Below are positions 9,723 through 30,073 of a stretch of DNA of 64,000 nucleotides, one piece after another. The translations under genes and the position numbers were made by a program. The stretch lies in the NCBI GenBank assembly GCA_963828195.1, contig CAWHDT010000001.1, forward strand, positions 32,001 to 96,000. The letters run 5' to 3'. How positions within the stretch are numbered: position 1 is the first letter of the stretch; each line of letters opens with the position of its first letter. Origin of the DNA: Candidatus Bathyarchaeota archaeon (GTDB lineage: Archaea > Thermoproteota > Bathyarchaeia > Bathyarchaeales > Bathycorpusculaceae). The notes below the pieces were generated by a model, which was given only the letters and a program-made list of their open reading frames with translations, had not been told where the DNA came from and made no database searches.

Positions 9723-9750
9723 GCCGCAATCCTACCTTTCTTAATGCGTT

Positions 9751-10302
9751 TCAAGTTTCATGTCTCAACAGCGAATTGAGAGTTTCATCCGCAAATCTGT
9801 CTAGTTTAGCCTTCACATAAGCGACGATTCCGACTTCTAAAAGTATAGCAGCTGAAAGGAAGATGGCAAGAGATTTTGTTAGAGTCACAAAAGCGTGTCC
9901 TATTTGAAAATTCACGCCTCCATTAACTGTTATTAGCCAGCTCCAGAAATTAGGATTCTGATTAACCATAAACGCTTCTAAATCAAACGTTATCCATAGA
10001 CATAAACTGACCAACAAGGCAGCTAAGGCGCAGCCGACGACTGTTAGGTTTTTCCAGTCCGAAGTCAACTGGGAAGAGCAGGTTACTTGTGTTTCAGAAT
10101 CAACCCTCTCAAAATCGATGGTGATTGTTTTTTTGGCTGTTCTTGGCGACGCCCCCCATAGCGAGCCCTGTTTAACCAAAATTTGCTTAGGCGGATCTTC
10201 TGAGATTATTTTGCAGCCTTTTGCTGCGAACGCAGCTTTCACATCTGAATAGGCTTTATCGATTCTTAAATTGACAGTTCGTTTGAGCAACGGAGGCACC
10301 AT
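9751..10302 (-). CDS. Hypothetical membrane protein
   Basis: 183-aa ORF, soluble N-terminal domain and two TMs. Confidence 0.7.
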   Translation of the reverse strand: MVPPLLKRTVNLRIDKAYSDVKAAFAAKGCKIISEDPPKQILVKQGSLWGASPRTAKKTITIDFERVDSETQVTCSSQLTSDWKNLTVVGCALAALLVSLCLWITFDLEAFMVNQNPNFWSWLITVNGGVNFQIGHAFVTLTKSLAIFLSAAILLEVGIVAYVKAKLDRFADETLNSLLRHET

Positions 10303-10345
10303 TTAGATTGAGCAGTTATGCAGCTGTTTACCTAAAAAGCTTCTT

Positions 10346-10966
10346 CTAATGCCTCGCCCTAGCTTTAAAACCTTTAATGTGCCTGCGCTCTAAGGCTCGG
10401 TTTCGCTCCATGTTTTTTATGCGGGCATAAAGCTTTGACACCTTGGTTTTAGAGGGCACCTTAGACCGCGGCTTATGAACAGGCACAGGAGTGAACGGTT
10501 TATTAATTTCAAGTTTGCGTCTTCTAGATTTTTTGACTGCAACATTACGGACTTTCTTGAATATCACGTAGCCCTCTTTGAGGTTTAGTTCCTGCACTTC
10601 CCAACCCGCATTTAGCCAAGCCTTTGCATGAGCGCTTGATGTTGAGTTACTCCACCAAGCATCATCTCTGAAAGCGTTCATAGGAAGGTTACTGCCGATT
10701 AAGCCGTCTATTCTTGCAAAGGAAAGTTTCACCAAATCTGTGAAAGCAGCTCTAAACTTCAAATGGCTTTCAAGCCCATCATACTTGGAGGCTGAACGCG
10801 GCGAAACCACTCGCCTAGCACAATGGAGGCACAACATGGCATTCGGGTCCCCAGTGGCAACATCAGGCACCATGCAGTCTCTGCAAAACAGTTTTTTACA
10901 ACGTTCGCACTTTCGCATGTAAGCTACGCGCAGAACTCTTCCACAGATCCCGCATTCATCTTTCAA
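10346..10966 (-). CDS. Cys8 zinc-finger protein with DUF7662-like domain and basic tail
   Basis: Four CxxC pairs, then 'KYDGLESHL...LSFARIDGLIG..LP....WWSN....HAKAWLNAGW'. Confidence 0.7.
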   Translation of the reverse strand: MKDECGICGRVLRVAYMRKCERCKKLFCRDCMVPDVATGDPNAMLCLHCARRVVSPRSASKYDGLESHLKFRAAFTDLVKLSFARIDGLIGSNLPMNAFRDDAWWSNSTSSAHAKAWLNAGWEVQELNLKEGYVIFKKVRNVAVKKSRRRKLEINKPFTPVPVHKPRSKVPSKTKVSKLYARIKNMERNRALERRHIKGFKARARH

Positions 10967-11031
10967 CGAATAGTCAACCTTTTACTAAGCGAACTTAAAA
11001 GTCACTAAACATATTCCGCATTTTAGACATA

Positions 11032-12570
11032 TTAATTTTCATTTTCTGAAAAACCGTTTTCGCCCAAATTATTGCCTTTATGGGTTAACTGTCGTAGCGT
11101 GACCTTGATTTCTTCCACTATTAATCTAATCAGGTCTCTCGCTTGGGCATCAATCGTCAGCAGCAAACCCGCATAGATTGCAAAGCCCCCAACGGCTTTT
11201 GCTATTGTAGGAAGCAGTGTTGATGGAGTGGGAAGCAGAAAAAGTACAACGCCCATAAAGATGGAAGCAAGAACATATTTGACTATACTTTTCCAAGCAA
11301 CAGGTAACCTAATTGAACGACGCCAAGACCAGTAAAGCCCAATAAAGGCTGAAAACTGAATGACAGTAAGTATTACGATAATGTCAACTGCCGCTTGGGG
11401 TGTTCCAGCTAGCCGAACATGCGTCAGAACTAAATAGATTAATGGTAAAGCAAATGCTGCCTGAATGTATCCAAGACTGAAAACGCCGAATATTTTGCTT
11501 CCGACAAGTTTACGAAGTGAAATTTTTCCTTCAGCGTCAAACCCTTCTCGGCCCATAATGAGCGAAGAATAAAACGAAATTATCACACCTACAAAAGTAT
11601 TAGCCGTTAATGCAACGAGAACGGGCCAAGCAACACTGTAAGATATATTTAAAACTGATAAGAACGAGATAGACATAACCATAGTTATAGTGGCTAATGG
11701 AATGGCCAACATTAACACTGTTCTTAATGATGTTCGCACCTGATCGTCTGGGCAACATTTAGCCAACAGTTTAGGATACATCGCAAATGCCAAAGAAGAG
11801 GAATAACCCACTATAGTCGTGAAACTTAAAGCTGCTTGATAGTAAGCTCTATCCGTTGCTCCACCATATAGGAAGAGCAAGATAAGTGCGAAAGCAACTA
11901 ACTGTCCGCCAATGGAGCTATAAGCAAATGCTGTTGAACCCTTAAGCCATTCTTTTAGGTAACTCCAGTTTATTTTTTGCTTAAATTCATCAGCTAAAAG
12001 TCGCATATAGTATGAAATTTGAACTAGGACAGAAATAACCAAACTTAGTATTGCGCCGAGAAATAGCTGCCTAAAACCAAGAATCAAAACTAAAGCAACA
12101 ATCACTTTCACTATTTCCTCAATCAAAAAACCATAGCCAATTACATGCGGCTTCATAGCAGTTAAAACGCTTTCAAAAATTGAGATCATGTAAGTGTTCA
12201 AAATGTACAAGCCAGTAATCAAGTAAATTAGCAAGTAAGCTTCGGTACCGATTGCTCTTGAAATCAGAACAATTACAGGAAGATAAATTACGACTGAAAT
12301 AAGAGCTATGAATAACTGCGCTAAAACGCCTGTTTTAACAGTTCCCGCCTTGCCTCTTGCCATAAACCGAGTTGCCCAGAAGGGTAACATGCCACTGAAA
12401 AGCAGAAAGTACCCAGTGTAATCAAAAATGTTTGTCCAAATACCAAATTGGCTTGTGGTCATGTTTCGGGTAAGCAAAAGTGTATAGATAAGCCCCGTAA
12501 TTATGCCTAATACTTGAGACGTAAAAATAATAAATCCGCTGTACTGAAGCCTGATTTCATGTTTGCTCAA
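11032..12570 (-). CDS. Polysaccharide/oligosaccharide flippase (MOP superfamily)
   Basis: About 13-14 TMs, 'LLTRNMTTSQFGIW', 'AMYPKL'. Confidence 0.75.
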   Translation of the reverse strand: MSKHEIRLQYSGFIIFTSQVLGIITGLIYTLLLTRNMTTSQFGIWTNIFDYTGYFLLFSGMLPFWATRFMARGKAGTVKTGVLAQLFIALISVVIYLPVIVLISRAIGTEAYLLIYLITGLYILNTYMISIFESVLTAMKPHVIGYGFLIEEIVKVIVALVLILGFRQLFLGAILSLVISVLVQISYYMRLLADEFKQKINWSYLKEWLKGSTAFAYSSIGGQLVAFALILLFLYGGATDRAYYQAALSFTTIVGYSSSLAFAMYPKLLAKCCPDDQVRTSLRTVLMLAIPLATITMVMSISFLSVLNISYSVAWPVLVALTANTFVGVIISFYSSLIMGREGFDAEGKISLRKLVGSKIFGVFSLGYIQAAFALPLIYLVLTHVRLAGTPQAAVDIIVILTVIQFSAFIGLYWSWRRSIRLPVAWKSIVKYVLASIFMGVVLFLLPTPSTLLPTIAKAVGGFAIYAGLLLTIDAQARDLIRLIVEEIKVTLRQLTHKGNNLGENGFSENEN

Positions 12571-12692: not shown

Positions 12693-14171
12693 CTAGCCTT
12701 TCACCACAGCGAGCGGAACGAGCCGAGCGACTTTAGTGGCAATTCCAACTTTATCGCTGACGTCGGCAACCACATCAACATTCTTATACGCTGGGTCGGC
12801 TTCCTCTGCCAAAACAGAAATGCTTGCTGCACGAACAACAATACCACGTTTCTCCAAAGCCGCTTTTATGTCTCCGCCCCAGTACTGCCGTTTTGCTGCT
12901 GATCGACTCATCATTCTTCCTGCGCCATGAGCTGTTGAACCAAAAGTTAAGTCCATAGCTTTCGGTGAACCCACCAAAACCCACGAGCTTGTGCCCATGC
13001 TCCCTGGAATGAGTACTGGCTGCCCTTCACTTCTGTAATCGACGGGAACATCTTGATGCCCTGCTGGGAAGGCACGTGTTGCTCCCTTGCGATGAACCCA
13101 AACCTTCTTTTCTCCGCCATCAATCTTGTGTGTTTCTACTTTAGCGATATTATGGGTTACGTCATAAACAAGTTTTAAACCGAAGTTTTCGGGAGGCTGC
13201 TGGAAAGCTTGTTGAAAGCTTTGTCTGACCCAATGCATAATTGCGTGGCGATTGCAAAAAGCATAGTTTACGGCGCACGCCATAGCTTGGAAGTAATCAC
13301 TTGCTTCACTGCTATGTCCAGGGGCACATGCCAATTCCCGGTCAGGTAACGTTATCTTGTACTTTTGCACTGCATGCTCCATTACCCTCAGGTAGTCGGA
13401 GCAGACTTGGTGACCATAGCCTCGTGAACCGCAGTGAATCATGACTGTAACTTGGCCTTCTTGCATAATTCCAAAAGCTTTAGCTGTTTTAGGGTTAAAG
13501 ATTTTATCTACTTTTTGGATTTCTAAGAAATGATTCCCCGAACCTAAAGTGCCAATTTGGGTTAATCCCCTGCTTTTAGCTGTCGACGAAACCTTATCAG
13601 GGTCAGCATTAGCCATGCAGCCGTTTTCTTCACAGTGCGAAGCATCTTCAGGCCAACCAAACCCTCGTTTAATAAGCCAGGGCACTCCTTCAACTACCAA
13701 GTGGTCTAGGTCGGCTGATAAAATCGTTAAATCCTTTCGCCGGCTGCCAAGTCCAGAGGGAACATTTCGGAAAATTGTTTCAGCTAAAGCCACAAGTTTA
13801 GGGCGGATCTCTTGTTCCGAAAGCGTTGTTGATAGTAGGCGAACGCCACAATTAATATCGTAGCCTACGCCGCCTGGGCTTATTACGCCTTCATCATAGT
13901 CGGTTGCGGCGACGCCGCCTATTGGAAAACCGTAACCTTCATGCCCGTCGGGCAATGTTATTGCATGCTTATAAATTCCAGGCAATTGTGCTACGTTTGT
14001 GCATTGCCAGAGAGTACGATCAGTCTTCATCTTTTCTAAAAGCGCTTCGTTTGCAAAAACCACGCCTGGAACTCTCATAGCTGACTTGTATTTAGGGATA
14101 CGCCAAGAGTAATCATTTATTTTCTCAAGAGGAACTTCTTCTGGCGCCCCTCGACTTTCACTTTCACCCAA
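12693..14171 (-). CDS. rtcB: RNA-splicing ligase RtcB
   Basis: 'PDGHEGYGFPIGG', 'GYDINCG', 'GTLGSGNHFLE', 'HRKGAT', 'HGAGR', ends 'VVKG'; no intein. Confidence 0.97.
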   Translation of the reverse strand: MGESESRGAPEEVPLEKINDYSWRIPKYKSAMRVPGVVFANEALLEKMKTDRTLWQCTNVAQLPGIYKHAITLPDGHEGYGFPIGGVAATDYDEGVISPGGVGYDINCGVRLLSTTLSEQEIRPKLVALAETIFRNVPSGLGSRRKDLTILSADLDHLVVEGVPWLIKRGFGWPEDASHCEENGCMANADPDKVSSTAKSRGLTQIGTLGSGNHFLEIQKVDKIFNPKTAKAFGIMQEGQVTVMIHCGSRGYGHQVCSDYLRVMEHAVQKYKITLPDRELACAPGHSSEASDYFQAMACAVNYAFCNRHAIMHWVRQSFQQAFQQPPENFGLKLVYDVTHNIAKVETHKIDGGEKKVWVHRKGATRAFPAGHQDVPVDYRSEGQPVLIPGSMGTSSWVLVGSPKAMDLTFGSTAHGAGRMMSRSAAKRQYWGGDIKAALEKRGIVVRAASISVLAEEADPAYKNVDVVADVSDKVGIATKVARLVPLAVVKG

Positions 14172-16148: not shown

Positions 16149-17207
16149 ATGAGCTCCAAAAAAACTGGTTTCGAGGACTCACTTTTAGCTGAAGTTGTTT
16201 CAACCGGAAAATGCGCAAGCTGTGGAACATGCGTTGTCGTCTGCCCCTTCGGCAGCCTTGAATTTGCCGAGGGTAAACCCAATTTGATAAAAGAATGCAA
16301 GGTCTGCGGCATATGCTCCCAGGCTTGTCCAAGATACAACTGGGCTATGGCGAAAGCTGAGAACTTTGTTTTCGGCAGGGAAAGAAAACCAGAAGAGGAA
16401 TTCGGAGTTTTCCGCAGAATAGCCGCTGCCCAAGCAAAACCTTCAGATATTCTTAAGGCACGTCAGGATGGGGGTGCCGCTACCGCAATGTTGGTTGCTG
16501 CTTTGCAGAGCGGACTAATCGATGGAGCCGTCGTTTCTGGGAAAAGCCGAGAAAAACCATTCCGGCCCATCCCTATTCTTGCAACGTCTGGAGAGAAAAT
16601 TGTTGAGTCGGCTGGAACAAAGTACACTTGCTCCTCGGCGCTTGCTGCTTTGCCCGAAGTAATTAAGCAGAAAAAGAGTCAAGTCGCGTTTGTGGGCACA
16701 CCATGCCAGATTCAAGCTGTCAGAAAAATGCAGATGAACGGTGTGAAGAGGTACAGCGCGCCGATAAAGTATCTAGTTGGGCTTATGTGCTCTGAGTGTT
16801 TTGATTACGAGGGACTCATGGAAACCCACATTAAAGGCAAATTAGGCATCAACCTAAACGACATCACAAAAATGAACATTAAAGGAAAAATGCTTGTAAC
16901 CACGCCGGCGGGAACCACAGCCATTCCCCTTGCAGACATAAAACAGTACGTTAGAAAAAGCTGCAGCGTCTGCGAAGACTTCAGCTCCGAACTCGCCGAC
17001 GTCTCAGTGGGCGGATTGGGGCTTGACGGCTGGACCTTCACAATTATCCGAACAGAAAAAGGCGAAGAACTATTCACAAACGCCGAAAAAACAGGATTCT
17101 TAGAATCAAAACCGCTCGAAGAAGGCGCATTCTCCAAGGGACTGCTGCTTAAGTTATCGAAGAAAAAACACGATACAGTAGCCACTCAGGCCCAGCCAAA
17201 ACAGTAA
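16149..17207 (+). CDS. Coenzyme F420 hydrogenase/dehydrogenase beta-subunit family protein (FrhB/FpoF-like) with N-terminal 2x[4Fe-4S] domain
   Basis: 'CASCGTCVVVCP', 'CKVCGICSQACP', 'QDGG', 'AGTKY', 'VGTPCQ', 'GLMCSE', 'CSVCEDFSSELADVSVG'. Confidence 0.9.
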   Translation: MSSKKTGFEDSLLAEVVSTGKCASCGTCVVVCPFGSLEFAEGKPNLIKECKVCGICSQACPRYNWAMAKAENFVFGRERKPEEEFGVFRRIAAAQAKPSDILKARQDGGAATAMLVAALQSGLIDGAVVSGKSREKPFRPIPILATSGEKIVESAGTKYTCSSALAALPEVIKQKKSQVAFVGTPCQIQAVRKMQMNGVKRYSAPIKYLVGLMCSECFDYEGLMETHIKGKLGINLNDITKMNIKGKMLVTTPAGTTAIPLADIKQYVRKSCSVCEDFSSELADVSVGGLGLDGWTFTIIRTEKGEELFTNAEKTGFLESKPLEEGAFSKGLLLKLSKKKHDTVATQAQPKQ

Positions 17208-17325: not shown

Positions 17326-17787
17326 TTAAATATCCATGATGAATTCTAAGACAACCAAATCCCTTTCTCTAATGATTACCATTCTATGATAAGTTACAGC
17401 TTTTACGGCGACTTTCTGCGGGTGCTTCTGAGAATCAAATTTTTCACCCCAAATTTTCGCCTTAATTTTGAAGTTTTCATCTGTTTCTGCCCATTTAGTT
17501 ATTTGGAATTTTGAGTAAAGCATATTTTCAGTTTCAAACTTCACCAGCAACGCTTCAAGCCAATTATAAAGCAGCGCGTACTGATCTTCGGCTTCAACCT
17601 CCACGGTTTCCTCTTGTGTTTGGGCTATTTTGTCGGTATCTGTCATGGTTTCAAACATTGAGAGAGCAGCGTTTTCGTATGCTTCCTCCATTGTTTTGCC
17701 ATGAGCCCGGACGTAAACATCCGCGGTATGTTCTAAAAACTCGAATTTTCCAGCAAATTTATCAGCAGAGTCCATTTTGAGCCTCAA
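17326..17787 (-). CDS. Archease (RtcB cofactor)
   Basis: 'FEFLEHTADV', 'VKAVTYH', C-terminal 'DI'. Confidence 0.95.
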   Translation of the reverse strand: MRLKMDSADKFAGKFEFLEHTADVYVRAHGKTMEEAYENAALSMFETMTDTDKIAQTQEETVEVEAEDQYALLYNWLEALLVKFETENMLYSKFQITKWAETDENFKIKAKIWGEKFDSQKHPQKVAVKAVTYHRMVIIRERDLVVLEFIMDI

Positions 17788-19637: not shown

Positions 19638-20516
19638 TTGGAACAGCAACCATTAAAAAAGATTGGAATTTTTAAATGCGGTAACATCGGTACCTCACCA
19701 AATCTTGAGCTCCTTCTTGACGAACTGGCTGACCGAAAAGACATCAAAGTTCGCGTTGTCACTACGGGATCAAAAATGAACCTTGACGATGTTGAGGATG
19801 CGTTTCCCAAAATTTTAGAATTCAACCCCGATATGATTGTCACAATATCGCCCAACACAGCTTTGCCCGGACCATCGAAAGCTAGAGAGCAGATTTCAAA
19901 AAGCCATCTGCCAGGAATTGTAATATCTGATTCTCCTGGAAAACGGGCAAAAGCGGAAATGGAAAGCCAAGGGCTAGGCTACCTAATCATCAGCGGTGAT
20001 CCGTTAATCGGCGCCAGAAAAGAATTCTTAGATCCAATTGAAATGGCAATATTCAACTCAAACATCAACAAAATACTTGCAATCACTGGCGTTTACAGGA
20101 TAGTTCAACAAGAAATTGACAAAGTAATTTATTCACTTGAAACTGGTCAAACTCCAGTTCTGCCCAAATTGGTAATAGACATGAATGCCGTCCGCGACAA
20201 TTCACCTTTCAGCAATCCCTATGCAAAAGCAAAGGCAATGGCTGCTTACGGCATGGCAGAGAAAGTTGCTGAGGTTGACACTCAAGCTTGCTTCATGGAG
20301 AAAGAGAGTGAAAAGTATATTCCTCTAGTCACCTGCGCGCATGAGATAGCTCAAGCAGCCGCGAGATTGGCTGAAGAGGCTCGTGAAATTGAGAAATACA
20401 ATGACAGCGTCCTTAGGAAACCTCACTCGAAAGACGGCAGGCAAAAAACTAAGAATAGACTGATGCTAGCGCCGACTTTCTCTGAAGAATTCTACGAGAA
20501 AAGCGGAGCACTTTAG
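19638..20516 (+). CDS. mtd: F420-dependent methylene-H4MPT dehydrogenase
   Basis: 'KCGNIGTS', 'LLLDELADRKDI', 'IGARKEFLDPIEMAIFN', 'NPYAKAKAMAA', 'AREIEK..D.V.R.PH..DG'. Confidence 0.9.
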   Translation: MEQQPLKKIGIFKCGNIGTSPNLELLLDELADRKDIKVRVVTTGSKMNLDDVEDAFPKILEFNPDMIVTISPNTALPGPSKAREQISKSHLPGIVISDSPGKRAKAEMESQGLGYLIISGDPLIGARKEFLDPIEMAIFNSNINKILAITGVYRIVQQEIDKVIYSLETGQTPVLPKLVIDMNAVRDNSPFSNPYAKAKAMAAYGMAEKVAEVDTQACFMEKESEKYIPLVTCAHEIAQAAARLAEEAREIEKYNDSVLRKPHSKDGRQKTKNRLMLAPTFSEEFYEKSGAL

Positions 20517-20734
20517 CCTCCTCTTTCATTTTTCGAGCACTTGTAAAATATGCTCGCAATTTAAAGAGGCGCTATTGCAAGTTTTTAATTTCTAACATTT
20601 ACTTTCGCTTTCAGGTTTTTTGTTGAATTCTGCGTTTACATAAATATTTCTGCGAAGGTTAATATTGGCGTTCGCTTTTTTTGTAAAACTGTTTATTTTA
20701 AAATTTTTAAAAAAAATCGAGGGAAAGGTTCATT

Positions 20735-20790
20735 GTATATATCGTATATACTCGCATATAGTGTATTGCGACTAAGTATATATTTTTAAA
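20735..20790 (+). promoter_or_regulatory. Putative operator (GTATATAC-based repeats) and TATA box of the MtdB fusion gene
   Basis: GTATATATCGTATATACTC at 20735-20753, TAAGTATATA at 20773-20782, then TTTTTAAA; the same motif recurs at 23581-23631. Confidence 0.55.
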
Positions 20791-20830
20791 CGATATGCAT
20801 GTATTATAAAAAACCAAGGAGATAAAAAAT

Positions 20831-22552
20831 ATGAAAGCACTTGAAGTTAAACCGCTTGAAAACAAGAATTTAACTGTAATGATACAGGAGAAAGAATACA
20901 ATGAGCCTTTCCAGCTTTTCGAATCTTCACAGCCAAAACAAAACATACTGCAAGCCCTCCAAAAACCCTCAATTGGTTTTTACAAATTTGTCGAGAATGT
21001 CGTTGCCAAAGTAAATATAGACTTCGTCACAGAAGAGCTAGGCAATAGAACTCAAAAAGAATTCTACCAAGATAACATCTTAGCAAACGTATTTCAAAAA
21101 AGCAACGTTCCTTTCTTCCCCGTTGACATAGACACCGAAGCCAAAACCTACATTGAATCTTCTTTTGAGAAAAAAATTGAATTAAGAGACAACATAATCA
21201 AAAACATAGAAAACCTAAGCAAACAGAAAAACAGCGATACCACAGAGAGAGACTACCTCATTGCGTACGGTCAGAGTTTGCAATCGGAAATAGAGGAACA
21301 AGAACGCGAAGTCAACTTCTCAATCAGAGAAAGCTGGATCGTCATGGGCATTATGGAACATGCAAGAGAAATCAAAAACAAAGACCAGATAACCTGCCTC
21401 TACGTTTGCAGCCCAGAGCATGTTACAGGAGTTAAGCAAATGCTAGAATCAGTTAACGCCAACGTGGAAATCGCGAAACTCTCAAAAAAGATAATGTCAA
21501 CTCAGGTTGAAACTCCCTCGTCACAGGAAATGGAAAACTGGCTCCAATCAATGCAGATTCAAGTTAAACCCATTGTCGGAAAAGCAGCTGACAAATCACC
21601 TTACTTGCTGTTCTACCTCGACACCGACGTTAAAGCAAGCCCATTTGACATTTGCATGGCATACGATGCAGGATACAACGCCGTCATTCCTTACGAGAAC
21701 ATCATTCCTGAAGACGTCAAAAGTATAGTGATGGATGCGTTACTCTCCAGAGGACCAAAAGCTGTTAAGCACACATGCTTTCTGATCGGAGGAAAAAACG
21801 CTGAAAGAGCCGAAAAAGTTTATGAAGTTATGAAAGATGCGATGTTCCCCCCATTCAAAGCAAGCATAATAGTTGACCCGGCCGGTGCATATACAACTGC
21901 CGCCGCAATGGTAGCAAAAGCTGAAAACGCGGTCGAAGCGAGCAAACTCGGAGAGTTAAAAACCAAAACGGTCGCTATCCTCGGCACAGGTGCTGTTGGA
22001 CAAATAGCTGCAGTTCTCTTAGCTAAAATGGGATGCAATGTAATGATTGCCAGTCTTAATCCGAAACGCGTTGATGGAAAAGAACATGCTGAAGGAATAT
22101 CTAAACTTCTTGCAAGAGATCATGGCGTCCAAGTTGAAGGGATCTTCGCTCCAACTCCAGCTTCGAAAATTGAGATCATAAAGAAAGCCGATGTAGTGAT
22201 GTGCGCAGGAGTAATGGGTGTTCGAATCATAGACAAAGAAATGCTAAATGAAGTCAAAACCATGAAGGTTCTACTTGACATAAACGCTGTACCGCCATTC
22301 GGAGTTGAAGGAATAGAATTAAAAGATGACATGAAAGAAATGCTGCCTGGAATTTTTACAATTGGAGCACTGACAGTTGGAGATCTGAAACATAAACTTG
22401 AAAAAGAAATTCTGCGCGATGCATTAGCCAACGGAAAAGAAGTCTATAACTTCAACAGTGATTTGCCACTTGCACGAAAACTGCTACAGAAAGATCTGTT
22501 CCCCACAAAGTTGGCGCTAACTCTCAACTATCCAACCGTTAAAAAATCCTAA
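20831..22552 (+). CDS. mtdB: Fusion: ~250-aa unknown N-terminal domain plus NAD(P)-dependent methylene-H4MPT dehydrogenase (MtdB-like)
   Basis: C-terminal half has 'SPFDICMAYDAG', 'SRGP', 'IGG', 'MFPPF', 'DPAGAYTTAAAMVA', Rossmann 'GTGAVG', 'DINAVPPFG', 'IGALTVGDLK'. Confidence 0.85.
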   Translation: MKALEVKPLENKNLTVMIQEKEYNEPFQLFESSQPKQNILQALQKPSIGFYKFVENVVAKVNIDFVTEELGNRTQKEFYQDNILANVFQKSNVPFFPVDIDTEAKTYIESSFEKKIELRDNIIKNIENLSKQKNSDTTERDYLIAYGQSLQSEIEEQEREVNFSIRESWIVMGIMEHAREIKNKDQITCLYVCSPEHVTGVKQMLESVNANVEIAKLSKKIMSTQVETPSSQEMENWLQSMQIQVKPIVGKAADKSPYLLFYLDTDVKASPFDICMAYDAGYNAVIPYENIIPEDVKSIVMDALLSRGPKAVKHTCFLIGGKNAERAEKVYEVMKDAMFPPFKASIIVDPAGAYTTAAAMVAKAENAVEASKLGELKTKTVAILGTGAVGQIAAVLLAKMGCNVMIASLNPKRVDGKEHAEGISKLLARDHGVQVEGIFAPTPASKIEIIKKADVVMCAGVMGVRIIDKEMLNEVKTMKVLLDINAVPPFGVEGIELKDDMKEMLPGIFTIGALTVGDLKHKLEKEILRDALANGKEVYNFNSDLPLARKLLQKDLFPTKLALTLNYPTVKKS

Positions 22553-23565
22553 ACACCTACGCTAAACGCGCGATTTATCGCGATCTCAGCTATGTTTGCG
22601 GCACAGTCCGCAATTCTTTTTATATTATCTCTCACAGAGCAGATTGCGCATACCAATTGCTCATTTTTTTGTTTTTCGGCGAATGCTTTAGCAGCTATTT
22701 CCTGATCCAACTTCGCAATTCCTTGTCTTTGCCTCAGTATCTCAATTGATTTCGTGAAATCCTTCAAAAAGAAAGTGTCCACTGCCTTTACATATAAATT
22801 CACAGCTTCATTTCCTGCGATGCACATTAGCTCTAATACGTTCTCGGGGATGTTTAGTTGGCTTCCGTCAAGCATTATTACGTCCCGCGCTACATCCGCT
22901 GAATTATCTGCTACCTCCCGCATCATGTAAACTAAGGTTTGGTAATCCATACATTCTAGCGGATCAATGCGAAACTCATTTGCCAAAGCAGCATCTTGAG
23001 CTGCATTACGTAGAACCCGAATAAGAAAATACGCAAAATGATATACATCACTGTCGAGGGAGAAAACAGCTTTGGCCAAGGGCACATCTTTGGTTTTTAG
23101 AGATCTAATTGCATCCTCCCCAATTGACTGAGAGATCATATGCATTCTCTGCACAGTTTGTTTTAAATCCGCCTTTGTTTCATCCATTAAGGTTTGGATG
23201 AAAACACCCTTAGAGTTAGACTCCATAATTCTCATGTACAGCATCCCTGCAATTTTACGGATTGCTTTTATCTGGGGAATGGAAAAAACTTTTTCCGAGA
23301 TAAGGGTGATTCCACTGTTTCCGTTTAAGTAGCTGCCTACGATCTTCATCGTTATTACCAGTTCATCTTCATTGGGGTCAATGCGGAGCGTTGTCTCTTT
23401 TGTTGTTGTCTTTTTCTTAGCGACAGGATAAATAACCAGGGAGCGGTCGCGTTGAATGGCGAATGAAACTACATCTCCTTTATTTAATTCGTTTAGCTGC
23501 ATCCAGTTTTTAGGGAGAGAAATTACCAGAGAAGACCTGCCGAGGGACATAACTCTACGTTCCAT
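22549..23565 (-). CDS. AbrB-PhoU family regulator (archaeal phosphate-uptake-regulator architecture)
   Basis: N-terminal 'RRVMSLGRSSLVISLPKNW...LNKGD' AbrB domain and two PhoU-like helical repeats ('IKRIADCAANIAEIA'); ATG 23565 follows the RBS AGGTTGAGG. Confidence 0.85.
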   Translation of the reverse strand: MERRVMSLGRSSLVISLPKNWMQLNELNKGDVVSFAIQRDRSLVIYPVAKKKTTTKETTLRIDPNEDELVITMKIVGSYLNGNSGITLISEKVFSIPQIKAIRKIAGMLYMRIMESNSKGVFIQTLMDETKADLKQTVQRMHMISQSIGEDAIRSLKTKDVPLAKAVFSLDSDVYHFAYFLIRVLRNAAQDAALANEFRIDPLECMDYQTLVYMMREVADNSADVARDVIMLDGSQLNIPENVLELMCIAGNEAVNLYVKAVDTFFLKDFTKSIEILRQRQGIAKLDQEIAAKAFAEKQKNEQLVCAICSVRDNIKRIADCAANIAEIAINRAFSVGV

Positions 23566-23580
23566 AATATTCCTCAACCT

Positions 23581-23631
23581 TAGTATATACTCATCATGAA
23601 TCATATAAATTAAGTATATACGAATATACTC
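23581..23631 (-). promoter_or_regulatory. Putative autoregulatory operator and TATA box of the AbrB-PhoU gene
   Basis: GTATATAC at 23583-23590 and 23614-23621 flank minus-strand TTTATATG (23602-23609). Confidence 0.55.
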
Positions 23632-23793
23632 ACAGTTATCCTAACCGTCGAAACCACATGAAACCACAATTTCAGAAAAACAATTGTCGTTCTACGCAGT
23701 GTCTAAAAGCAGGCAGACATCGGTCCCACTGCACAGCAGATTACTTGAAGAAAATAACTTTTCATAGTTTCGGCAGGTTTAGTTGGTTCAAGT

Positions 23794-24963
23794 CTACTTA
23801 AAAGCGCGTTCCATTCTGTCACAAGCTTCCCGGATCTTTTCTTTGGGCTGAGTTAAGGCAAATCGAACATGACTTTCTCCGCATTCACCGAAACCAGTTC
23901 CAGGCGTGACAACCACTCCAGCATTCAGCATTTTGCTCGTGAAGTCCATCGAATTGAAGTTGCCGTTTACCCAAAGATAGAAAGTGGCTTTTGGTTTCTC
24001 GCATTTGAAGCCTAATGAGCATAATCGTTCCACAAGCACATCACGCCTCTCTTTGTAAATGTGGTTATTTTTTTTCAAAAAATCGGGCTGTTCTCTGTTC
24101 TTGTAGCTTTGAAGGGCCTTGACCGCTACTTTTTGAATGTAAACAGGTGGTCCGGAATCAATTTGCGACTTGACTTTAGTTAAGCCAGCGACGAGCTGCT
24201 TGTTTCCGACAGCAAAACCTATACGATCGCCTGTCATGTTGAAAGTTTTTGAAAGCGAGTGAAACTCGATAGCAACATCCATGGCGCCATCGACCTCCAG
24301 AATGCTGGGTGCGCGGTAGCCATCGTAGGTGATTTCTGAGTAGGCGTTATCATAGCAAAGGATTATGTTGTTGTCTTTAGCGAAGTCTACTGCTGCTTTG
24401 AGAAATTTCGTGTCAACGGTTGCTGCTGTGGGATTATTTGGATAATTTAGAAACATCATCTTTACATTATTTGTCTTTACAGCTTCAAAATCTGGCGTAA
24501 AGCCTTTTTCCTCAAGAAGTGGCAGTGGCACCGATATGCCGTCGCAAAGGATTGTGCTACCATTGGCATACACTGGGTAAGCTGGGTCGGGAACTAACAC
24601 TCGGTCGCCCGGGTTTATGAACGCTCGGGCAATGTTCGCTATACCTTCTTTTGAGCCTAAAAGCGCAATCACCTGGTCCTGCTGCAGGTCAACAGTGAAT
24701 CGCTTCTTGTACCATTCGGCAACTGCTCCTCGAAAGTCCGGTTCGCCTTGGCTAAATGAGTAGTTGTGGTTCTTTGGGTTAGCTGCCTCTTCTTTGAGCG
24801 AGTCTATGACAAAGCTTGGCGGCGGAAGGTCTGGGTCACCGATGCTAAGTGAAATTAGGTCAATGCCTTGAGCCCTTTTTTGCTTAATTATTCTCTCAAT
24901 TTCAGCGAACATATACGGAGGCAATCGCGTTATTCGCCCAGCATAATCAAATGTCATATTCAT
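23794..24963 (-). CDS. dapL: LL-diaminopimelate aminotransferase
   Basis: Class I PLP motifs 'IGDPD', 'NYPNNPT', 'DNAY', 'SLSKTFNMTGDRIG'; last gene of the dap operon. Confidence 0.85.
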   Translation of the reverse strand: MNMTFDYAGRITRLPPYMFAEIERIIKQKRAQGIDLISLSIGDPDLPPPSFVIDSLKEEAANPKNHNYSFSQGEPDFRGAVAEWYKKRFTVDLQQDQVIALLGSKEGIANIARAFINPGDRVLVPDPAYPVYANGSTILCDGISVPLPLLEEKGFTPDFEAVKTNNVKMMFLNYPNNPTAATVDTKFLKAAVDFAKDNNIILCYDNAYSEITYDGYRAPSILEVDGAMDVAIEFHSLSKTFNMTGDRIGFAVGNKQLVAGLTKVKSQIDSGPPVYIQKVAVKALQSYKNREQPDFLKKNNHIYKERRDVLVERLCSLGFKCEKPKATFYLWVNGNFNSMDFTSKMLNAGVVVTPGTGFGECGESHVRFALTQPKEKIREACDRMERAFK

Positions 24964-25793
24964 ACTTCTCCAAACAGCGCACCCTTAAACACTTTTTCGG
25001 CTCCCCCGCTTAAAAATAAGCTTTTAGCCACTTCAATCTGCAAGTCTCCGCCCAGCACATGAACGACAACTTTTTTTCCGACTTTTCCAAGCTTGTTTGC
25101 AACAGCCACAGCAGCACACGCACCCGTCCCGCACGCTAAAGTCTCACCGCAGCCTCTTTCCCAAACGCGAACTTTCAACTCATTAGGGCTTAAGACTTGA
25201 ACGAAGCCTACATTGGTTCTTTTTGGAAAGCCACTATGGTTCTCAATTTTTCGTCCTATTTGCTCTACTGGAAAATCGTCTAGGTCGTCAACGAATATTA
25301 TGCAGTGCGGATTACCCATTGAAATGCACGTAATCTTGAAGGTCTGATCGTCAATGTCCAAGCTTTCGTTGATGCATGTCCCTTGTCCAATCATTGGGAG
25401 GGAGCATCTTTCCCAGTTTGGCGAGCCCATATCCACCTTGACAGCACTAACTTCATGATGCTGCAGAGTTAACCAAACAGCCTTTATCCCAGACATGGTC
25501 TCAACAAAAAAAGCGTTCTTCTTAACAACACCGTTTTCGTAGCAGTACTTGGCAAAGCATCGTATCCCGTTGCCACACATTTCTGCTTCACTGCCGTCAG
25601 CGTTAAAAATCCGCATTTTAACATCAGCCACCGTGGAGGTTGAAACCAGCAAAAGACCATCTGCTCCAACAGAAAAGTGTCTCTCGCAGAGCTTCTTAGC
25701 TAAGTCTGCAGCTTGCTTACTGCTGAACTTCTCTTCTCTGTTGTCGATAACTACGTAATCGTTGCCTAAACCATGCATTTTCCAGAAAAGCAT
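24960..25793 (-). CDS. dapF: Diaminopimelate epimerase
   Basis: 'KMHGLGNDY', 'EMCGNGIRC', 'GNPHC', 'ERGCGETLACGTG'; ATG overlaps the lysA stop. Confidence 0.96.
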   Translation of the reverse strand: MLFWKMHGLGNDYVVIDNREEKFSSKQAADLAKKLCERHFSVGADGLLLVSTSTVADVKMRIFNADGSEAEMCGNGIRCFAKYCYENGVVKKNAFFVETMSGIKAVWLTLQHHEVSAVKVDMGSPNWERCSLPMIGQGTCINESLDIDDQTFKITCISMGNPHCIIFVDDLDDFPVEQIGRKIENHSGFPKRTNVGFVQVLSPNELKVRVWERGCGETLACGTGACAAVAVANKLGKVGKKVVVHVLGGDLQIEVAKSLFLSGGAEKVFKGALFGEV

Positions 25794-27103
25794 CAAGGGC
25801 ACTCTGCCATTCGCTGATTAGCGGTTAAATTATCAAGTTGCTCTCGCTCTCTAATAACCAACGGTTTGCCTTGCCTAATCAAAACTTCTTCAGCTCGTGG
25901 CCGTGCATTATACTGTGAACTCATGCTGAAACCGTATGCGCCAACGTTCAAAACTGCTAGCAAATCACCTTCTTCAACAACAGGCAGCTCTCGGTCTTTA
26001 GCTAAGGCGTCGCCTGACTCACAGATTGGACCAACCACATCGCAGATTTCCTTATTGGTTGCTCCAAGCTTATTGGCGACCAGTATTGGATGGTAGGAAC
26101 CGTACATTGTGGGTCTGACAAGCGTGTTGAAGCCAGCGTCCACGCCGACGAATTTTTTTGAAGGCGTAACCTTAACCGTATTAACTGTTGTTAAGAGGAT
26201 GCTTGCATCACAGACCAAATACCTGCCGGGTTCAACACACAAAAATGGTTTACCGAGACCATACTCGGCGACTTTACCTTTGAAAGGCGCCACTACTTTT
26301 GAAGCAAATTCAGCCAAATCGAATTCTTGATCCTCAGGCTTGTAAGGAACCCCAAAACCGCCACCAATATCGATAAATTCGAATTCTAGCCCAACCTCAT
26401 CATGAACCCGCTTAGCTATACTTAACAGCTTATCCACTGCCAAAACGTAAGGTTCAACATCAAGAATACCCGACCCTATGTGCATGTGAATACCGAAGCG
26501 TTCCACTCTTGCCCTCTTAGCAATCGCGTAAGCCTGAATCGTCTCTTCTTCCCAAAGCCCAAATTTCGAGTCTGGACCAGCCGTTATGCAGTGGCTGTGA
26601 TGACCAGCGCCGACTTCGGGGTTAACGCGCACCGACAAAATCTGTGGCACAGCAATCTTTAGCAGCCTATCGAGCTCTGATTGAGAATCCACGTTTACGG
26701 TGACATTGGCATCTGTTAGCATTTTTAACTCATCGTTTCTCACGCTGGTTCCAGTAAACATTATTCGGTCCTGCGAGTAACCGCTGATTAAGCCCATGAA
26801 CACTTCGCCGGGGCTAACAGTGTCCAAATATGCACCTTGTGACTGAAGAATCTTGAGCACCGTAAGGTTAGAGTTTGCTTTTGCAGCATAATAAATTCTA
26901 ACGTACTTGTAGTTGCGAACTAACGCGTCATAAATCCGATTGTAATTATCTCTGATGCGTTTCTCGCTTATGACGTATAAGGGCGTATCGTATTTTTCAG
27001 CCAATTCCTTAACTGAAACACCATCGAAGAACAAGTTGCCTTTCCGATCCTCCAATGGTTCACGAAGCTTTCTTGTCTTAACCATCTTGCACACCCAACC
27101 CAA
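25793..27103 (-). CDS. lysA: Diaminopimelate decarboxylase
   Basis: 'YAAKAN', 'SKFG', 'HMHIGS', 'EPGRYLV', 'GPICESGD', 'GAYG'. Confidence 0.96.
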   Translation of the reverse strand: MGWVCKMVKTRKLREPLEDRKGNLFFDGVSVKELAEKYDTPLYVISEKRIRDNYNRIYDALVRNYKYVRIYYAAKANSNLTVLKILQSQGAYLDTVSPGEVFMGLISGYSQDRIMFTGTSVRNDELKMLTDANVTVNVDSQSELDRLLKIAVPQILSVRVNPEVGAGHHSHCITAGPDSKFGLWEEETIQAYAIAKRARVERFGIHMHIGSGILDVEPYVLAVDKLLSIAKRVHDEVGLEFEFIDIGGGFGVPYKPEDQEFDLAEFASKVVAPFKGKVAEYGLGKPFLCVEPGRYLVCDASILLTTVNTVKVTPSKKFVGVDAGFNTLVRPTMYGSYHPILVANKLGATNKEICDVVGPICESGDALAKDRELPVVEEGDLLAVLNVGAYGFSMSSQYNARPRAEEVLIRQGKPLVIREREQLDNLTANQRMAECP

Positions 27104-27122
27104 TTGTTTATTGTTTAAGAAT

Positions 27123-28181
27123 TTAAGCTAAGCCTTTAGCAACGAACAACTCAGCGCTAAGTATCCCTGCGCCTGCACCGCCGCGAACCGTATTATGCCC
27201 AAGACACATATACTTGAAAGTCATAATTGGGTCCTTCCTTATTCGCCCAACTACAACACTCATGCCGCATCCTGTGTCACGGTCGAAACGTGGCTGAGGC
27301 CTATTTTTCTCACATCGAACCACAATGGGCTTCGCTGGGGCAGACGGCAACTTTAGTTTTTGCGGTTCACCGCTAAAGTTGGCAAATGAGGTCTCGATTT
27401 CTTTTAAGGAAGGATCCTCTGACAACTTTATGAAAACAGATTCCAGATGCCCGTCCTTAACGTGGACTCTGTTGCAACTTGCGCTAACAGTGAAATCAGC
27501 ATTCTTCACTGCTTTACCGTTGAAGGTTCCCAATATCTTTAGAGCTTCAGCTTCCATCTTCTCTTCCTCGCCTGAGATGAAGGGAACAACGTTGTCTATT
27601 ATATCTAGTGATGCAACACCGGGGTATCCTGCCCCGCTAAGCGCCTGCATAGTTGAGACAATAATTTGCTTTAGACCAAACTGCATCAAAGGCTTCAGCG
27701 TAATTGCAAGTTGGATGGTGCTACAGTTGGGGTCAGTTGTTATGAACCCTTTCCAGCCCCTTAATTTCTGCTGAACCTTAACTAAATCAGCATGGTCAGG
27801 GTTAATTTCTGGAATGATCAAAGGAACATCTTTTTCCATGCGGTGCGCGCTTGCTTTGCTGAAAACCGGATAAAGCGCCGCGAATTCGGATTCAACCGGA
27901 CCCGCCAAGTCACCTGGAAGAGACGAAAACACCAAATCCACGTCCCCTGCCTTCTCCACTGATTCCACATCAGCGTTTGCCACGGACATTTCTGCAATCT
28001 CCTTAGGCAAGTTTGACTCCATAACCCAGTTGCAAGCATCCCCGTATTTTTTTCCTGCTGACCGCTCTGAAGCAGCAATCACCTCTATTTGGAACCATGG
28101 GTGCCCCTGTAACAGTTGAATGTACCGTTGCCCAACCGCTCCGGTTGCGCCTAATATGGCTACCTTACGCTTCATCGACAT
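27123..28181 (-). CDS. asd: Aspartate-semialdehyde dehydrogenase
   Basis: 'GATGAVGQR', 'PNCST', 'QALSGAG', 'HNTVRGGAG'. Confidence 0.96.
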   Translation of the reverse strand: MSMKRKVAILGATGAVGQRYIQLLQGHPWFQIEVIAASERSAGKKYGDACNWVMESNLPKEIAEMSVANADVESVEKAGDVDLVFSSLPGDLAGPVESEFAALYPVFSKASAHRMEKDVPLIIPEINPDHADLVKVQQKLRGWKGFITTDPNCSTIQLAITLKPLMQFGLKQIIVSTMQALSGAGYPGVASLDIIDNVVPFISGEEEKMEAEALKILGTFNGKAVKNADFTVSASCNRVHVKDGHLESVFIKLSEDPSLKEIETSFANFSGEPQKLKLPSAPAKPIVVRCEKNRPQPRFDRDTGCGMSVVVGRIRKDPIMTFKYMCLGHNTVRGGAGAGILSAELFVAKGLA

Positions 28182-28248
28182 TATTGGTTCTTCCTTTTGC
28201 TTGTGAGTTGTTGTTCCTTGATAAAAAAGTTAATGGTTGATTTTCTGG

Positions 28249-29043
28249 TCAAGATAAACCTAAAACATCAGCCATGCTAAACACCTTAGGCTCATTTTGT
28301 TTGCTTAACCATTCCGCTGCGTAAATAGCCCCTTGAGCAAAAACGTCACGGGAGAAAGCCGTATGCTCAATACGCAGCATCTCGTAGGGTCCTGCAATTA
28401 TCAGGTCGTGAATGCCCGGAACACCTCCGGCTCGTAGAGCAGTTATTTCAAGTTCGCCAGGTTGCCTAGGGCTTATTCCTTCGCGTCCCGAAACGATTTT
28501 TGTGTAACCGCGCGCGTTAGCAACTATTTCGCCTAGTTTTTTTGCAGTTCCGCTTGGCGCATCTTTCTTGCCTGTGTGATGGACTTCGTTTATGCTGAAA
28601 TCGTATCCAGTCGGAAAAGCCTTCAAAGCTTCAGCGAGCTTGAACAGTATGTTGACCCCAACGGAATAGTTTGGTGAGAAAACGGCTGGAACTTTGCCTG
28701 ACATGGCAGCTACTACTTGGCGGTTTTGCTCAACTGTGAAGCCGGTGGTGCCAAGAATTATGCGTTTTCCAAGGTTAGCAACGATGGGTATGTTGATTAC
28801 CTCGGCGGCAGGAACTGTGAAACTGACATAAGTGTCAGCGTGCTCTAAAGCTTCGTTCAATCTGTCGGAACTCAGGATTTGCGTGTCTGAATTGGTAATG
28901 CCTAGTTCTCTCAGGGTTCGCCCTATATTTGGGTTATTTGGAGCTTCAATTGCCCCAACTATCTCATGCCCTTTTGAGGTGGCTTCAGTGATTATGGCGT
29001 TGCCCATTCTTCCTGCGGCGCCTGCAACGCACAGCTTAAGCAT
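28249..29043 (-). CDS. dapB: 4-hydroxy-tetrahydrodipicolinate reductase
   Basis: 'GAAGRMG', 'GTTG', 'EVHHTGKKDAPSGTA'. Confidence 0.96.
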   Translation of the reverse strand: MLKLCVAGAAGRMGNAIITEATSKGHEIVGAIEAPNNPNIGRTLRELGITNSDTQILSSDRLNEALEHADTYVSFTVPAAEVINIPIVANLGKRIILGTTGFTVEQNRQVVAAMSGKVPAVFSPNYSVGVNILFKLAEALKAFPTGYDFSINEVHHTGKKDAPSGTAKKLGEIVANARGYTKIVSGREGISPRQPGELEITALRAGGVPGIHDLIIAGPYEMLRIEHTAFSRDVFAQGAIYAAEWLSKQNEPKVFSMADVLGLS

Positions 29044-30073
29044 AGTAGAGCCCTTCCAAGTACTTCTCGTTGTATAGCCGGTTCTTTAAGTCGACGTTGA
29101 AGTAGTCGGCGATCGGCTGAAGGATTTCTGGGGTGTTCTCATATACTTTCCGGGCGTTCGTAAGCACTACTTCTAAACCGTTTCGAGTCATCTTTCCTAA
29201 TGGTTGCCTGCAGGGACCGGAGGGCATACCCAACACATTCATCAGCGTTTTGTAGGCGAGAGGATTGCGGGCTCTGCATGCTACTGTGCCGTATATGGTT
29301 TGTTCGTGTGTTTTAACGGTGACTATGCTAAAGAGCGGTTGGAGTGCTTGGGCAATGACGCTTGCAGCCTCTTCGTTTCCATCCAGGACATAATGCACCA
29401 TATCCACTACGGCGCTTGGAGCTACGTTAGATATTACTGATATTGCGCCGCTGGCCCTTATGTCGGGCGAAATCATCATAGTATATGTTTTATCGTCGTC
29501 TCCCGAAAGGATGTCAAAGTCGTCACCGCAAAATTGCCTTGTCAACTCCATGTTCTTCAAATCGCCAGTGGCTTCCTTCACGCAGCGGACGTTTGGGTAT
29601 TGCTGATGAAGTATTGCTAAATCTTGCGGGTAAAGCTGAGTTCCCGTCCTTCCCGGGATTATATAGGGGATTACTTGGATTTCAGGGAACTGCCTTGCAA
29701 TTGGTTCAACATATTCCATACGTATCTCTAAGGAGCTCGGTCCGTTATAGTATGGATCCACAAGCAAAACACTTTTTATGCCTAACTGCTGCGCGTGTTC
29801 CGTACCGTCGATGGCTTCCTGGGTTGAGTTGCTTCCTGTCCCAGCTATAGTTAAGACTTTTTCACCTGCGTAATCATGGGTTTTTTCAATTACGTTGTTA
29901 TGTTCATTCCAGTCTAAGGTGGGGCTTTCGCCAGTTGTGCCGACGGCAAGTATACCTTTTACACCTTCTTCTATTTGGAAATCTACCAGTTGACGTAAGC
30001 CTTCGTAATCGACTTGGCGATTACGGGTCATGGGGGTTATTAGCGCAGTGTAACATCCACTAAATTTCACCAT
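29036..30073 (-). CDS. dapA: 4-hydroxy-tetrahydrodipicolinate synthase (with C-terminal extension)
   Basis: 'GTTGESPTL', 'GTGSNST', 'PYYN', 'VKEATG', 'LSGDD'. Confidence 0.93.
   Translation of the reverse strand: MVKFSGCYTALITPMTRNRQVDYEGLRQLVDFQIEEGVKGILAVGTTGESPTLDWNEHNNVIEKTHDYAGEKVLTIAGTGSNSTQEAIDGTEHAQQLGIKSVLLVDPYYNGPSSLEIRMEYVEPIARQFPEIQVIPYIIPGRTGTQLYPQDLAILHQQYPNVRCVKEATGDLKNMELTRQFCGDDFDILSGDDDKTYTMMISPDIRASGAISVISNVAPSAVVDMVHYVLDGNEEAASVIAQALQPLFSIVTVKTHEQTIYGTVACRARNPLAYKTLMNVLGMPSGPCRQPLGKMTRNGLEVVLTNARKVYENTPEILQPIADYFNVDLKNRLYNEKYLEGLYYA

Follow-up and report, generated by a model that had tools for sequence, protein, structure and literature searches.

A conserved Bathyarchaeia gene cluster that sets F420-dependent Mtd beside a two-domain MtdA/MtdB-like protein and an AbrB-PhoU regulator

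Why should an archaeon keep, side by side, a pair of unrelated enzymes that share one and the same one-carbon (C1) step, one predicted to work with coenzyme F420 and the other with nicotinamide adenine dinucleotide or its phosphate, NAD(P)? The question is raised by a 64-kb stretch of DNA (G000:C1:32001-96000, here called the window) from the genome of a soil archaeon (G000; 2.83 Mb, 9 contigs, 96% complete) whose nearest protein relatives are labelled Bathyarchaeota or Bathyarchaeia in their source records. In the window, the gene for Mtd, the F420-dependent methylene-tetrahydromethanopterin (H4MPT) dehydrogenase, is followed by a gene for a fusion protein ending in an MtdA/MtdB-like domain and by a gene for a putative AbrB-PhoU regulator. 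We report that this trio is a conserved Bathyarchaeia cluster and not a chance arrangement. We tentatively favor the reading that the cluster gives the H4MPT-bound C1 pool two hydride ports, a regulated NAD(P) port being added to an F420-driven pathway. The parts of the cluster are as follows (window coordinates).

19638-20516, plus strand: Mtd, the methylene-H4MPT dehydrogenase that depends on F420 (292 residues; NCBIfam, Pfam, and PDB matches).
20733-20786, plus strand: conserved noncoding block, 45 to 100 bases before the fusion start; presumed operator and promoter of the fusion gene.
20831-22552, plus strand: fusion protein (573 residues; N-terminal domain, residues 1 to 256; dehydrogenase domain, residues 257 to 573).
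20831-21598, plus strand: N-terminal domain of the fusion (residues 1 to 256; predicted alpha/beta core with a long helical hairpin).
21599-22552, plus strand: MtdA/MtdB-like NAD(P)-type methylene-H4MPT dehydrogenase domain (residues 257 to 573; GTGAVG dinucleotide-binding motif).
22549-23604, minus strand: AbrB/SpoVT-PhoU putative transcription regulator (351 residues), convergent with the fusion gene.
23612-23633, no strand assigned: GTATATAC-type boxes, 8 to 29 bases before the regulator start codon; possible autoregulation site.

All genes named in an original prediction for this DNA were found where it had placed them. Conservation was judged from two sets of relatives, a class sample of 301 Bathyarchaeia genomes (Mtd, fusion, and short-gene counts tallied by hand) and a wider set made of the best 80 of 408 relatives, from 80 species genomes that carry Bathyarchaeota or Bathyarchaeia names save for one mislabelled bin. 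In the wider set, Mtd lay directly upstream of the fusion on the same strand at 58 of 80 loci (gap, 88 to 409 bases; median, 128 bases); at others it was divergent (two loci), beyond the regulator (one locus), or undecidable (five loci). The regulator was convergent with the fusion at 77/80 loci, absent from one (L114), and undecidable at two. Among the class-sample loci, it stood convergent right after the fusion at 26 of 30; at two further loci, the sequence on that side is shorter than 120 bases, and no such gene was seen over 778 bases at L012 (a second copy, with a TGA in frame) or over 1,500 bases at L035. The proposed module was therefore borne out by synteny. No description of the fusion, or of an archaeal pairing of Mtd with MtdB, was found in the searched literature, in which coverage of subscription journals and supplementary tables was limited; a Bathyarchaeia survey gives only "Mtd" in a pathway legend (PMC10321748).

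What the second enzyme does for its host is suggested first by where it occurs. The fusion protein had matches in 79 of the 301 genomes, of which 33 were full-length, one was a fragment at a contig end (G062), one was the N-terminal domain only (G005), and 44 were short only. The short, solo MtdB-like gene encodes about 310 to 330 residues and is 35 to 48% identical to the C-terminal domain of the fusion. Mtd was present in 187/301 genomes overall, in 33/33 fusion genomes, and in only 1/44 solo-short genomes (G297, 66% complete, 330 contigs). From this difference, it follows that the fusion is an add-on to Mtd and not its replacement; we read the solo enzyme as standing in for Mtd and the partnered enzyme as only accompanying it. 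Of the 15 genomes in the host genus, 5 carry both Mtd and the fusion, and the other 10 have the short gene without Mtd. One genome (G193) has the short gene between the same anchors (aminotransferase and M42 peptidase), among genes for an Na/Ca exchanger, Usp, MscS, and a PAS histidine kinase.

The first gene of the trio raises little doubt. Its product is predicted to be a bona fide F420-dependent Mtd, with an NCBIfam equivalog match (NF002162) of 394.2 bits against a cut-off of 297, a Pfam MTD match (PF01993) of 397 bits spanning profile positions 2 to 273 of 274, and a match to solved Mtd 1qv9 at an expectation (E) value of 6e-85.

For the second gene, fusion residues 271 to 351 matched Mpt_N (PF09176; 92.5 bits, cut-off of 27), which occurs only once in the genome, and residues 355 to 490 gave Rossmann-type Pfam matches. 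Residues 257 to 551 aligned with chain residues 3 to 287 of solved MtdA (6tlk and 1lu9; phmmer, E value of 1e-37, about 31% identity), and the fold match to the same structures was whole length (Foldseek E value of 1e-24; target TM score, 0.93; root mean square deviation, 2.0 to 2.1; mean pLDDT of the superposed fusion model, 88.6). The motif G-T-G-x-V-G was invariant across 11 aligned domains. As judged from these matches, residues 257 to 551 make up a whole dehydrogenase of the NAD(P) type, MtdA/MtdB-like. An acidic residue is missing after the second Rossmann strand (IASLNPKR), which suggests NADP as the cofactor; NADP would most likely be the carrier used by the fusion in the host.

MtdB-type NAD(P) enzymes are a family studied in methylotrophic bacteria. 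The fusion shares Mpt_N and the Rossmann domain with methylotroph MtdA/MtdB (solved MtdA 1lu9, 6tlk, and 6tge). It differs in being archaeal and in its extra 256-residue N-terminal domain, which the bacterial enzymes do not have, and its subfamily always has an N-domain partner, either fused or encoded by the next-door gene. MtdA and MtdB are single-domain proteins of about 290 to 300 residues, and the fusion, at 573 residues with a conserved N-terminal domain, is not. In the 80-locus set, the N-domain was fused to the dehydrogenase at 77 of 77 informative loci; two others had no upstream sequence, and at L064, a run of N directly upstream and the retained linker sequence ruled out a C-domain that lacks the N-domain. 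The protein start (MKALEVKPLENK, 20831-20860) and the linker before the dehydrogenase (MQIQVKPIVGK, 21545-21600) have in common a short x-hydrophobic-x-VKP arm.

What, then, is the N-terminal domain? Pfam and NCBIfam searches gave no family for residues 1 to 256. Across 26 members of the N-domain family, Pfam at an E value of ≤10 gave nothing consistent, and PF01963 was unmatched in every member. A search of 1.84 billion representatives returned only 68 proteins at an E value of ≤1e-3, namely, fusions of about 550 to 580 residues, stand-alone proteins of 200 to 265 residues, and P0148, the one permuted fusion, which begins with the dehydrogenase. Modelled alone (pLDDT, 88.2; pTM, 0.79), the domain has a five-stranded alpha/beta core and a long helical hairpin, and Foldseek against the PDB gave nothing at an E value of ≤1e-3. 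VIA-align gave middling matches, to CbiL (Z score of 9.5, the first), ChaN (8.4, 146 residues aligned), HopBA1 (7.5), EreC (7.1), and 2qgm (6.9), and the closest named Atlas cluster was TraB/GumN (0.84, a lead only). The TraB/Tiki/ChaN/erythromycin esterase superfamily usually has histidine- and glutamate-bearing motifs. The domain may resemble this superfamily (TraB/PrgY, GumN, Tiki, ChaN, and erythromycin esterase) in its alpha/beta core, with weak fold matches, and differs from it in having no sequence-family or Foldseek match, in its inserted long helical hairpin, and in the replacement of those motifs, as compared by eye. A distantly TraB/ChaN-like origin is thus a lead, short of membership. 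In 40 aligned sequences, W169 alone was invariant, L4, A104, Y107, and R166 were near invariant, and together they make no obvious catalytic set; the domain is probably a noncatalytic accessory or docking domain.

The partnership of the two domains appears older than their fusion. In a distant set of 80 metagenome loci (L123 to L202), found by a scan with five distant stand-alone N-domain proteins as queries, an MtdB-like gene directly followed the stand-alone N-domain gene on the same strand at 63/80 loci (median gap, 115 bases); the MtdB-like gene of these split pairs encodes about 328 residues (Mpt_N, 88 bits). A tree was made from 33 C-domains (the window, each fifth locus of the 80 with the fusion, each fourth long split match, and 5 short genes). 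In it, four solo short genes stood apart from all partnered ones, fused and split, on a 100/100 branch, and the split group formed one side of a 100/99 branch. From these sequences, the N-domain and MtdB-like enzyme are a two-part unit older than the fusion. Neighbors of the split pairs (of 80 loci) included genes that were HdrA-like (33), HdrD-like (19), FrhB-like (13), NiFe small-subunit-like (8), and NfnA-like (7); the HdrA-like genes bear an N-terminal winged-helix DUF7347, the HdrD-like genes are of the CCG type, and a 126-residue open reading frame without a Pfam match recurs at 17 of the split loci. A universal link between the N-domain and AbrB-PhoU was ruled out, as the PhoU profile matched at 1/80 of the distant split loci.

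Several loci depart from the usual layout. An unfused copy in one genome (G148) fell within the fused group of the tree, where its branch is long; at this locus (L122, G148:C16, 7216-10341), the fusion-type dehydrogenase is unfused and fast evolving (48% identity), keeps the convergent AbrB-PhoU gene, and adjoins a solo short-type copy, in a genome with no Mtd match. The genome with the N-domain gene alone (G005) has it divergent from an AbrB-PhoU gene and has no MtdB-like match. At L121 (G053:C22), an AbrB-PhoU gene comes first, followed by a stand-alone N-domain gene, the fusion, an NfnA-like gene, and an NfnB-like gene; the last two lie directly after the fusion on the same strand (9428-11657) and are matched as NfnA-like (DHODB_Fe-S_bind, FAD_binding_6, and NAD_binding_1) and NfnB/GltD-like (Fer4_20 and Pyr_redox_2).

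How might the second enzyme be controlled? The stop codons of the regulator and fusion genes overlap by 4 bases. The regulator matched Pfam MazE_antitoxin (AbrB type) at residues 23 to 65 (32.6 bits) and PhoU in two stretches (42.2 bits) and failed the PhoU equivalog TIGR02135 (33 bits against a cut-off of 130); a sequence search gave it no solved relative. Its family has five matches in the host genome and is present in 278/301 genomes. Upstream of the fusion, palindromic GTATATAC-type boxes are followed by a TATA-like AAGTATATAT, with a consensus over 76 loci of tgTATATAc..TATatAt.t.tATATA.ggTATTTCGActAaGTATATATttt (about 52 bp). Columns conserved at ≥80% numbered 35 before the fusion (76 loci), 7 before Mtd (55 loci), and 15 before the regulator (35 loci), the ATG being counted among the last. 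Across the 2.83-Mb genome, the 19-base core of the block (≤1 mismatch allowed) has a single match, at the 20733-20786 block itself.

No Rfam family matched the block, and its RNA fold was no better than that of shuffled sequences (z score of −1.06); a riboswitch or leader RNA is disfavored on both counts. Given the lack of any Rfam or fold signal and a 3′ end that is TATA-box-like about 45 bases before the start codon, we read the block as a DNA-level operator plus promoter. With its own conserved upstream block, absent before Mtd, the fusion gene is probably controlled by the convergent AbrB-PhoU regulator, which, from the conserved adjacency, may bind that block. At the regulator's own promoter, the 13-mer CGWATATACTCRC (≤1 mismatch) was found in the window only at 20743 and 23621, a count that is circular, as the pattern was drawn from both sites; the regulator promoters of 35 relatives have in common aaagTATATATt, 11 bases, and gtaTTAAt.

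The genome supplies a setting for both enzymes. H4MPT-pathway genes found were Mch, two Ftr genes, CdhC, and Fae (480-residue frame); FolD and MTHFR were not found in the genome, and the best match to the Mer model was 61 bits against a cut-off of 349. Because the H4MPT genes are present and FolD and MTHFR were not found, the C1 carrier is taken to be H4MPT. CofD scored 357.9 bits against a cut-off of 257 and was over the cut-off in 20/33 fusion genomes, 23/44 short-type genomes, and 15/15 genomes of the host genus; these counts ruled out that the solo short gene replaced Mtd where F420 had been lost. In one family (f19), Mtd was present in 66 of 71 genomes and CofD was over the cut-off in 5 of 71, and 13 of the 33 fusion genomes had no CofD match; either F420 is scavenged, or another enzyme serves the CofD step, or Mtd works with another deazaflavin source. 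A bona fide Fno (TIGR01915) was not found in the host genome (best match, 71.9 bits; cut-off, 149.8 bits). Across the sample, it was found in 2/33 fusion genomes versus 46/154 other Mtd genomes, a difference that follows family lines, and a substitution of the fusion for Fno is only weakly suggested.

One further redox gene lies close by.

16149-17207, plus strand: stand-alone FrhB/FpoF-like iron-sulfur flavoprotein (N-terminal 2x[4Fe-4S], FrhB_N, and FrhB_C).

It had been placed about 2.4 kb upstream of the trio, and it ends 2,431 bases before Mtd. The product matched Pfam FrhB_FdhB_C (PF04432, 147.8 bits) and FrhB_FdhB_N (PF04422, 76.8 bits), with two Fer4 motifs, and fell below the equivalog cut-offs (TIGR03289, 220.8 versus 331.5; NF040616, 143.2 versus 475); the best solved match was 8riu_B (E value of 9e-58, residues 12 to 340). 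It is the sole FrhB-family gene of the genome, and its neighbors are adenylate kinase and archease genes, not a hydrogenase (FrhA/FrhG) or Fpo subunit. The product is likely an oxidoreductase linked to ferredoxin or F420. For homoacetogenic archaea, a soluble ferredoxin:F420 oxidoreductase of the FqoF/FpoF type has been proposed (PMC10667645); likeness to that type lies in a stand-alone FrhB-family protein with N-terminal 2x[4Fe-4S] near F420-dependent C1 genes, and the difference is that the host protein scores under the FpoF and FrhB equivalog cut-offs.

Its tie to the trio is loose. Between it and Mtd lie three unrelated minus-strand genes (archease, C_GCAxxG protein, and M42 peptidase), and 21/80 loci carry an orthologue (57 to 93% identical) no more than 4 kb from the fusion, in three different arrangements. 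By hand comparison, FrhB-like genes adjoin a plain Mtd (gap, ≤1.4 kb) in at least 22 fusion-free genomes and, among the matches listed, adjoin CofD in at least 7 genomes and the solo short gene in 4/4 genomes of one genus. In these four (G032, G142, G244, and G121, all without Mtd), the solo short gene is convergent with the FrhB-like orthologue (52 to 54% identical), 5 to 40 bases apart. Given these adjacencies to Mtd, the short gene, and CofD, the FrhB-like gene belongs to the F420/C1 neighborhood generally and not to the trio specifically. In two genomes of the host genus (G187 and G193), it is missing between adenylate kinase and archease, so it looks like a local insertion.

From these parts, the favored reading would run as follows. 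Mtd would link the methenyl/methylene-H4MPT couple to coenzyme F420, and the MtdA/B-like half of the fusion would link the same couple to NAD(P). The N-terminal half would be a degenerate accessory domain, distantly TraB/ChaN-like, that had already accompanied this enzyme subfamily when the two were still unfused and would serve assembly or docking, not catalysis. The fusion would be transcribed from its own conserved promoter/operator, atop a separately transcribed Mtd, in line with the oligo-T runs that follow the Mtd stop codon. Since the fusion occurs only where Mtd is present, its role would be to give an F420-driven pathway a regulated link to NAD(P). If both enzymes were active, a catalytic amount of H4MPT-bound C1 would necessarily shuttle hydride between F420H2 and NAD(P)+, and the nearby single FrhB-like protein would plausibly connect ferredoxin to F420. 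By annotation, the two enzymes that such a coupled cycle takes, Mtd and the MtdA/B-like domain, occur together in every one of the 33 fusion genomes. The cofactors, the direction, regulation by AbrB-PhoU, and the hydride cycle are all put forward conditionally. As an interpretation, the original prediction stood in its synteny module; the hydride exchange that it added is suggested by annotation, by co-occurrence, and by the precedent of Hmd plus Mtd. A complex prediction for the whole fusion with Mtd (score of 0.17, mark of 0.32), made without controls, is evidence neither way.

Midpoint potentials are about −390 mV for the H4MPT couple, −340 mV for F420, and −320 mV for NADP, and on these values a net flow from F420H2 to NADP+ would be downhill. 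The precedent is the coupled reaction of Hmd and Mtd in hydrogenotrophic methanogens under nickel limitation, where H4MPT-bound C1 is the catalytic shuttle (PMC13572956). The likeness is in two unrelated enzymes acting on one couple with different hydride partners, Mtd being one of them in both cases. The differences are that the place of the [Fe]-hydrogenase is taken here by a predicted Rossmann dehydrogenase of the NAD(P) type that carries an extra domain, that the net exchange would be F420H2:NAD(P)+ instead of H2:F420, and that the host is a nonmethanogenic member of the Bathyarchaeia. The proposed net reaction is also the one that Fno/NpdG (F420H2:NADP+ oxidoreductase) catalyzes directly; the proposed route needs two enzymes and passes through H4MPT, whereas Fno needs one.

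Several observations weigh against this reading. The sampled genomes are mutually related and hence not independent, so that the counts overstate independence. At 14/80 loci, Mtd is missing from at least the first 1 kb upstream of the fusion, and in 10/33 sample genomes Mtd is on a different contig from the fusion. In the 80 distant split loci, Mtd adjoining the pair gave one weak match, so the subfamily has no need of a neighboring Mtd. The N-domain, a partner whose presence sets a subfamily apart, is left unexplained by a simple two-enzyme cycle. Regulator homologues (56 to 62% identity) occur in six genomes without the fusion. With an NfnB/GltD-like gene in its genome, the host probably has another means of making NADPH. 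Finally, by hand count, a bona fide Fno is also missing from 108 of the 154 Mtd genomes without the fusion, so there is no general need for an F420-NADP link.

Rather unlikely in our view, and the first rival to be weighed, is that Mtd and the fusion are isoenzymes only, catalyzing one step but differing in the conditions or the direction in which they do so as the regulator switches between them, with no physiologically meaningful hydride cycle. As an example, F420H2 would drive CO2 reduction, and NAD(P)+ would take hydride from the oxidation of formaldehyde- or serine-derived C1 units. It is favored by the differing promoters (a dedicated conserved block at the fusion and none at Mtd), by the oligo-T runs 3′ of the Mtd stop codon, between the two genes, by Fae, which provides a formaldehyde route to methylene-H4MPT, and by the 43 genomes in which the solo short gene stands in for Mtd, suggesting that NAD(P)-type enzymes suffice for the step. 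However, a self-sufficient fusion should sometimes occur without Mtd, and this was seen in 0/33 genomes; the tight adjacency of Mtd at 58/80 loci also suggests joint use over exclusive use.

A fuller version of the two-port reading is doubtful as a whole. In it, the cluster would form a relay without a dedicated transhydrogenase: the FrhB-like protein would pass electrons from ferredoxin to F420, Mtd would load the H4MPT-bound C1, and the fusion would unload it to NADP+, replacing Fno, with the N-domain as a scaffold that docks the partners and AbrB-PhoU switching the NADP port on via the block of about 52 bp.

We consider it improbable that the two-part enzyme is instead the C1-facing arm of a larger assembly, its N-domain docking an FrhB-like or Hdr/Mvh-like iron-sulfur flavoprotein, so that methenyl-H4MPT reduction would be coupled to ferredoxin, F420, or H2, beyond free NAD(P)H. 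FrhB-like genes within 4 to 5 kb of 21/80 fused and 13/80 split loci, the FrhB-like gene directly beside the solo short gene in one genus, the Hdr-, NiFe-, and NfnA-like neighbors of the split loci, and the few invariant N-domain residues, none of catalytic type, point this way. Against it, FrhB-like genes stand equally often beside plain Mtd and CofD, as given above, which fits ordinary clustering of pathway genes.

Very improbable is that the fusion is mainly a sensor (trigger enzyme), its N-domain reporting to AbrB-PhoU on the C1 or NAD(P) state, or that it acts on a different substrate: the N-domain alone divergent from AbrB-PhoU in G005, and likewise in G053, and the regulator as the most constant neighbor of the fusion would fit, but the MtdA-like sequence blocks held in common with the solved enzyme are retained, a PhoU-type neighbor is present at only one of the 80 distant split loci, and a convergent orientation is atypical for a sensor-regulator pair.

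The surroundings of the cluster are of another kind. One flank holds housekeeping genes for RtcB, a metallo-beta-lactamase-fold protein, adenylate kinase, archease, a C_GCAxxG protein, and an M42 peptidase. Archease is the cofactor of RtcB RNA ligase, and the two genes (RtcB, 12693-14171; archease, 17326-17787) are on the same strand with 3 kb between them. The other flank (23794-30073, minus strand) is an unbroken six-gene diaminopimelate/lysine string by Pfam (class I/II aminotransferase, diaminopimelate epimerase, diaminopimelate decarboxylase, aspartate-semialdehyde dehydrogenase, DapB, and DapA), which adjoins the cluster in close relatives too.

Bathyarchaeia are among the most abundant archaea of sediments and soils, and, to our knowledge, their energy and carbon metabolism is known from genomes only. 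Fno is missing from most of the sampled genomes. If the two-port reading holds, the cluster would be a concrete, testable answer to how the ferredoxin, F420, and NAD(P) pools are linked around the archaeal Wood-Ljungdahl pathway, with parts that lend themselves to testing: two purifiable soluble enzymes, a single regulator, and a DNA site with sharp bounds. For the family, the predicted NAD(P)-type methylene-H4MPT dehydrogenases of archaea come in two distinct forms, one replacing Mtd and one only accompanying it, always with a previously undescribed partner domain.

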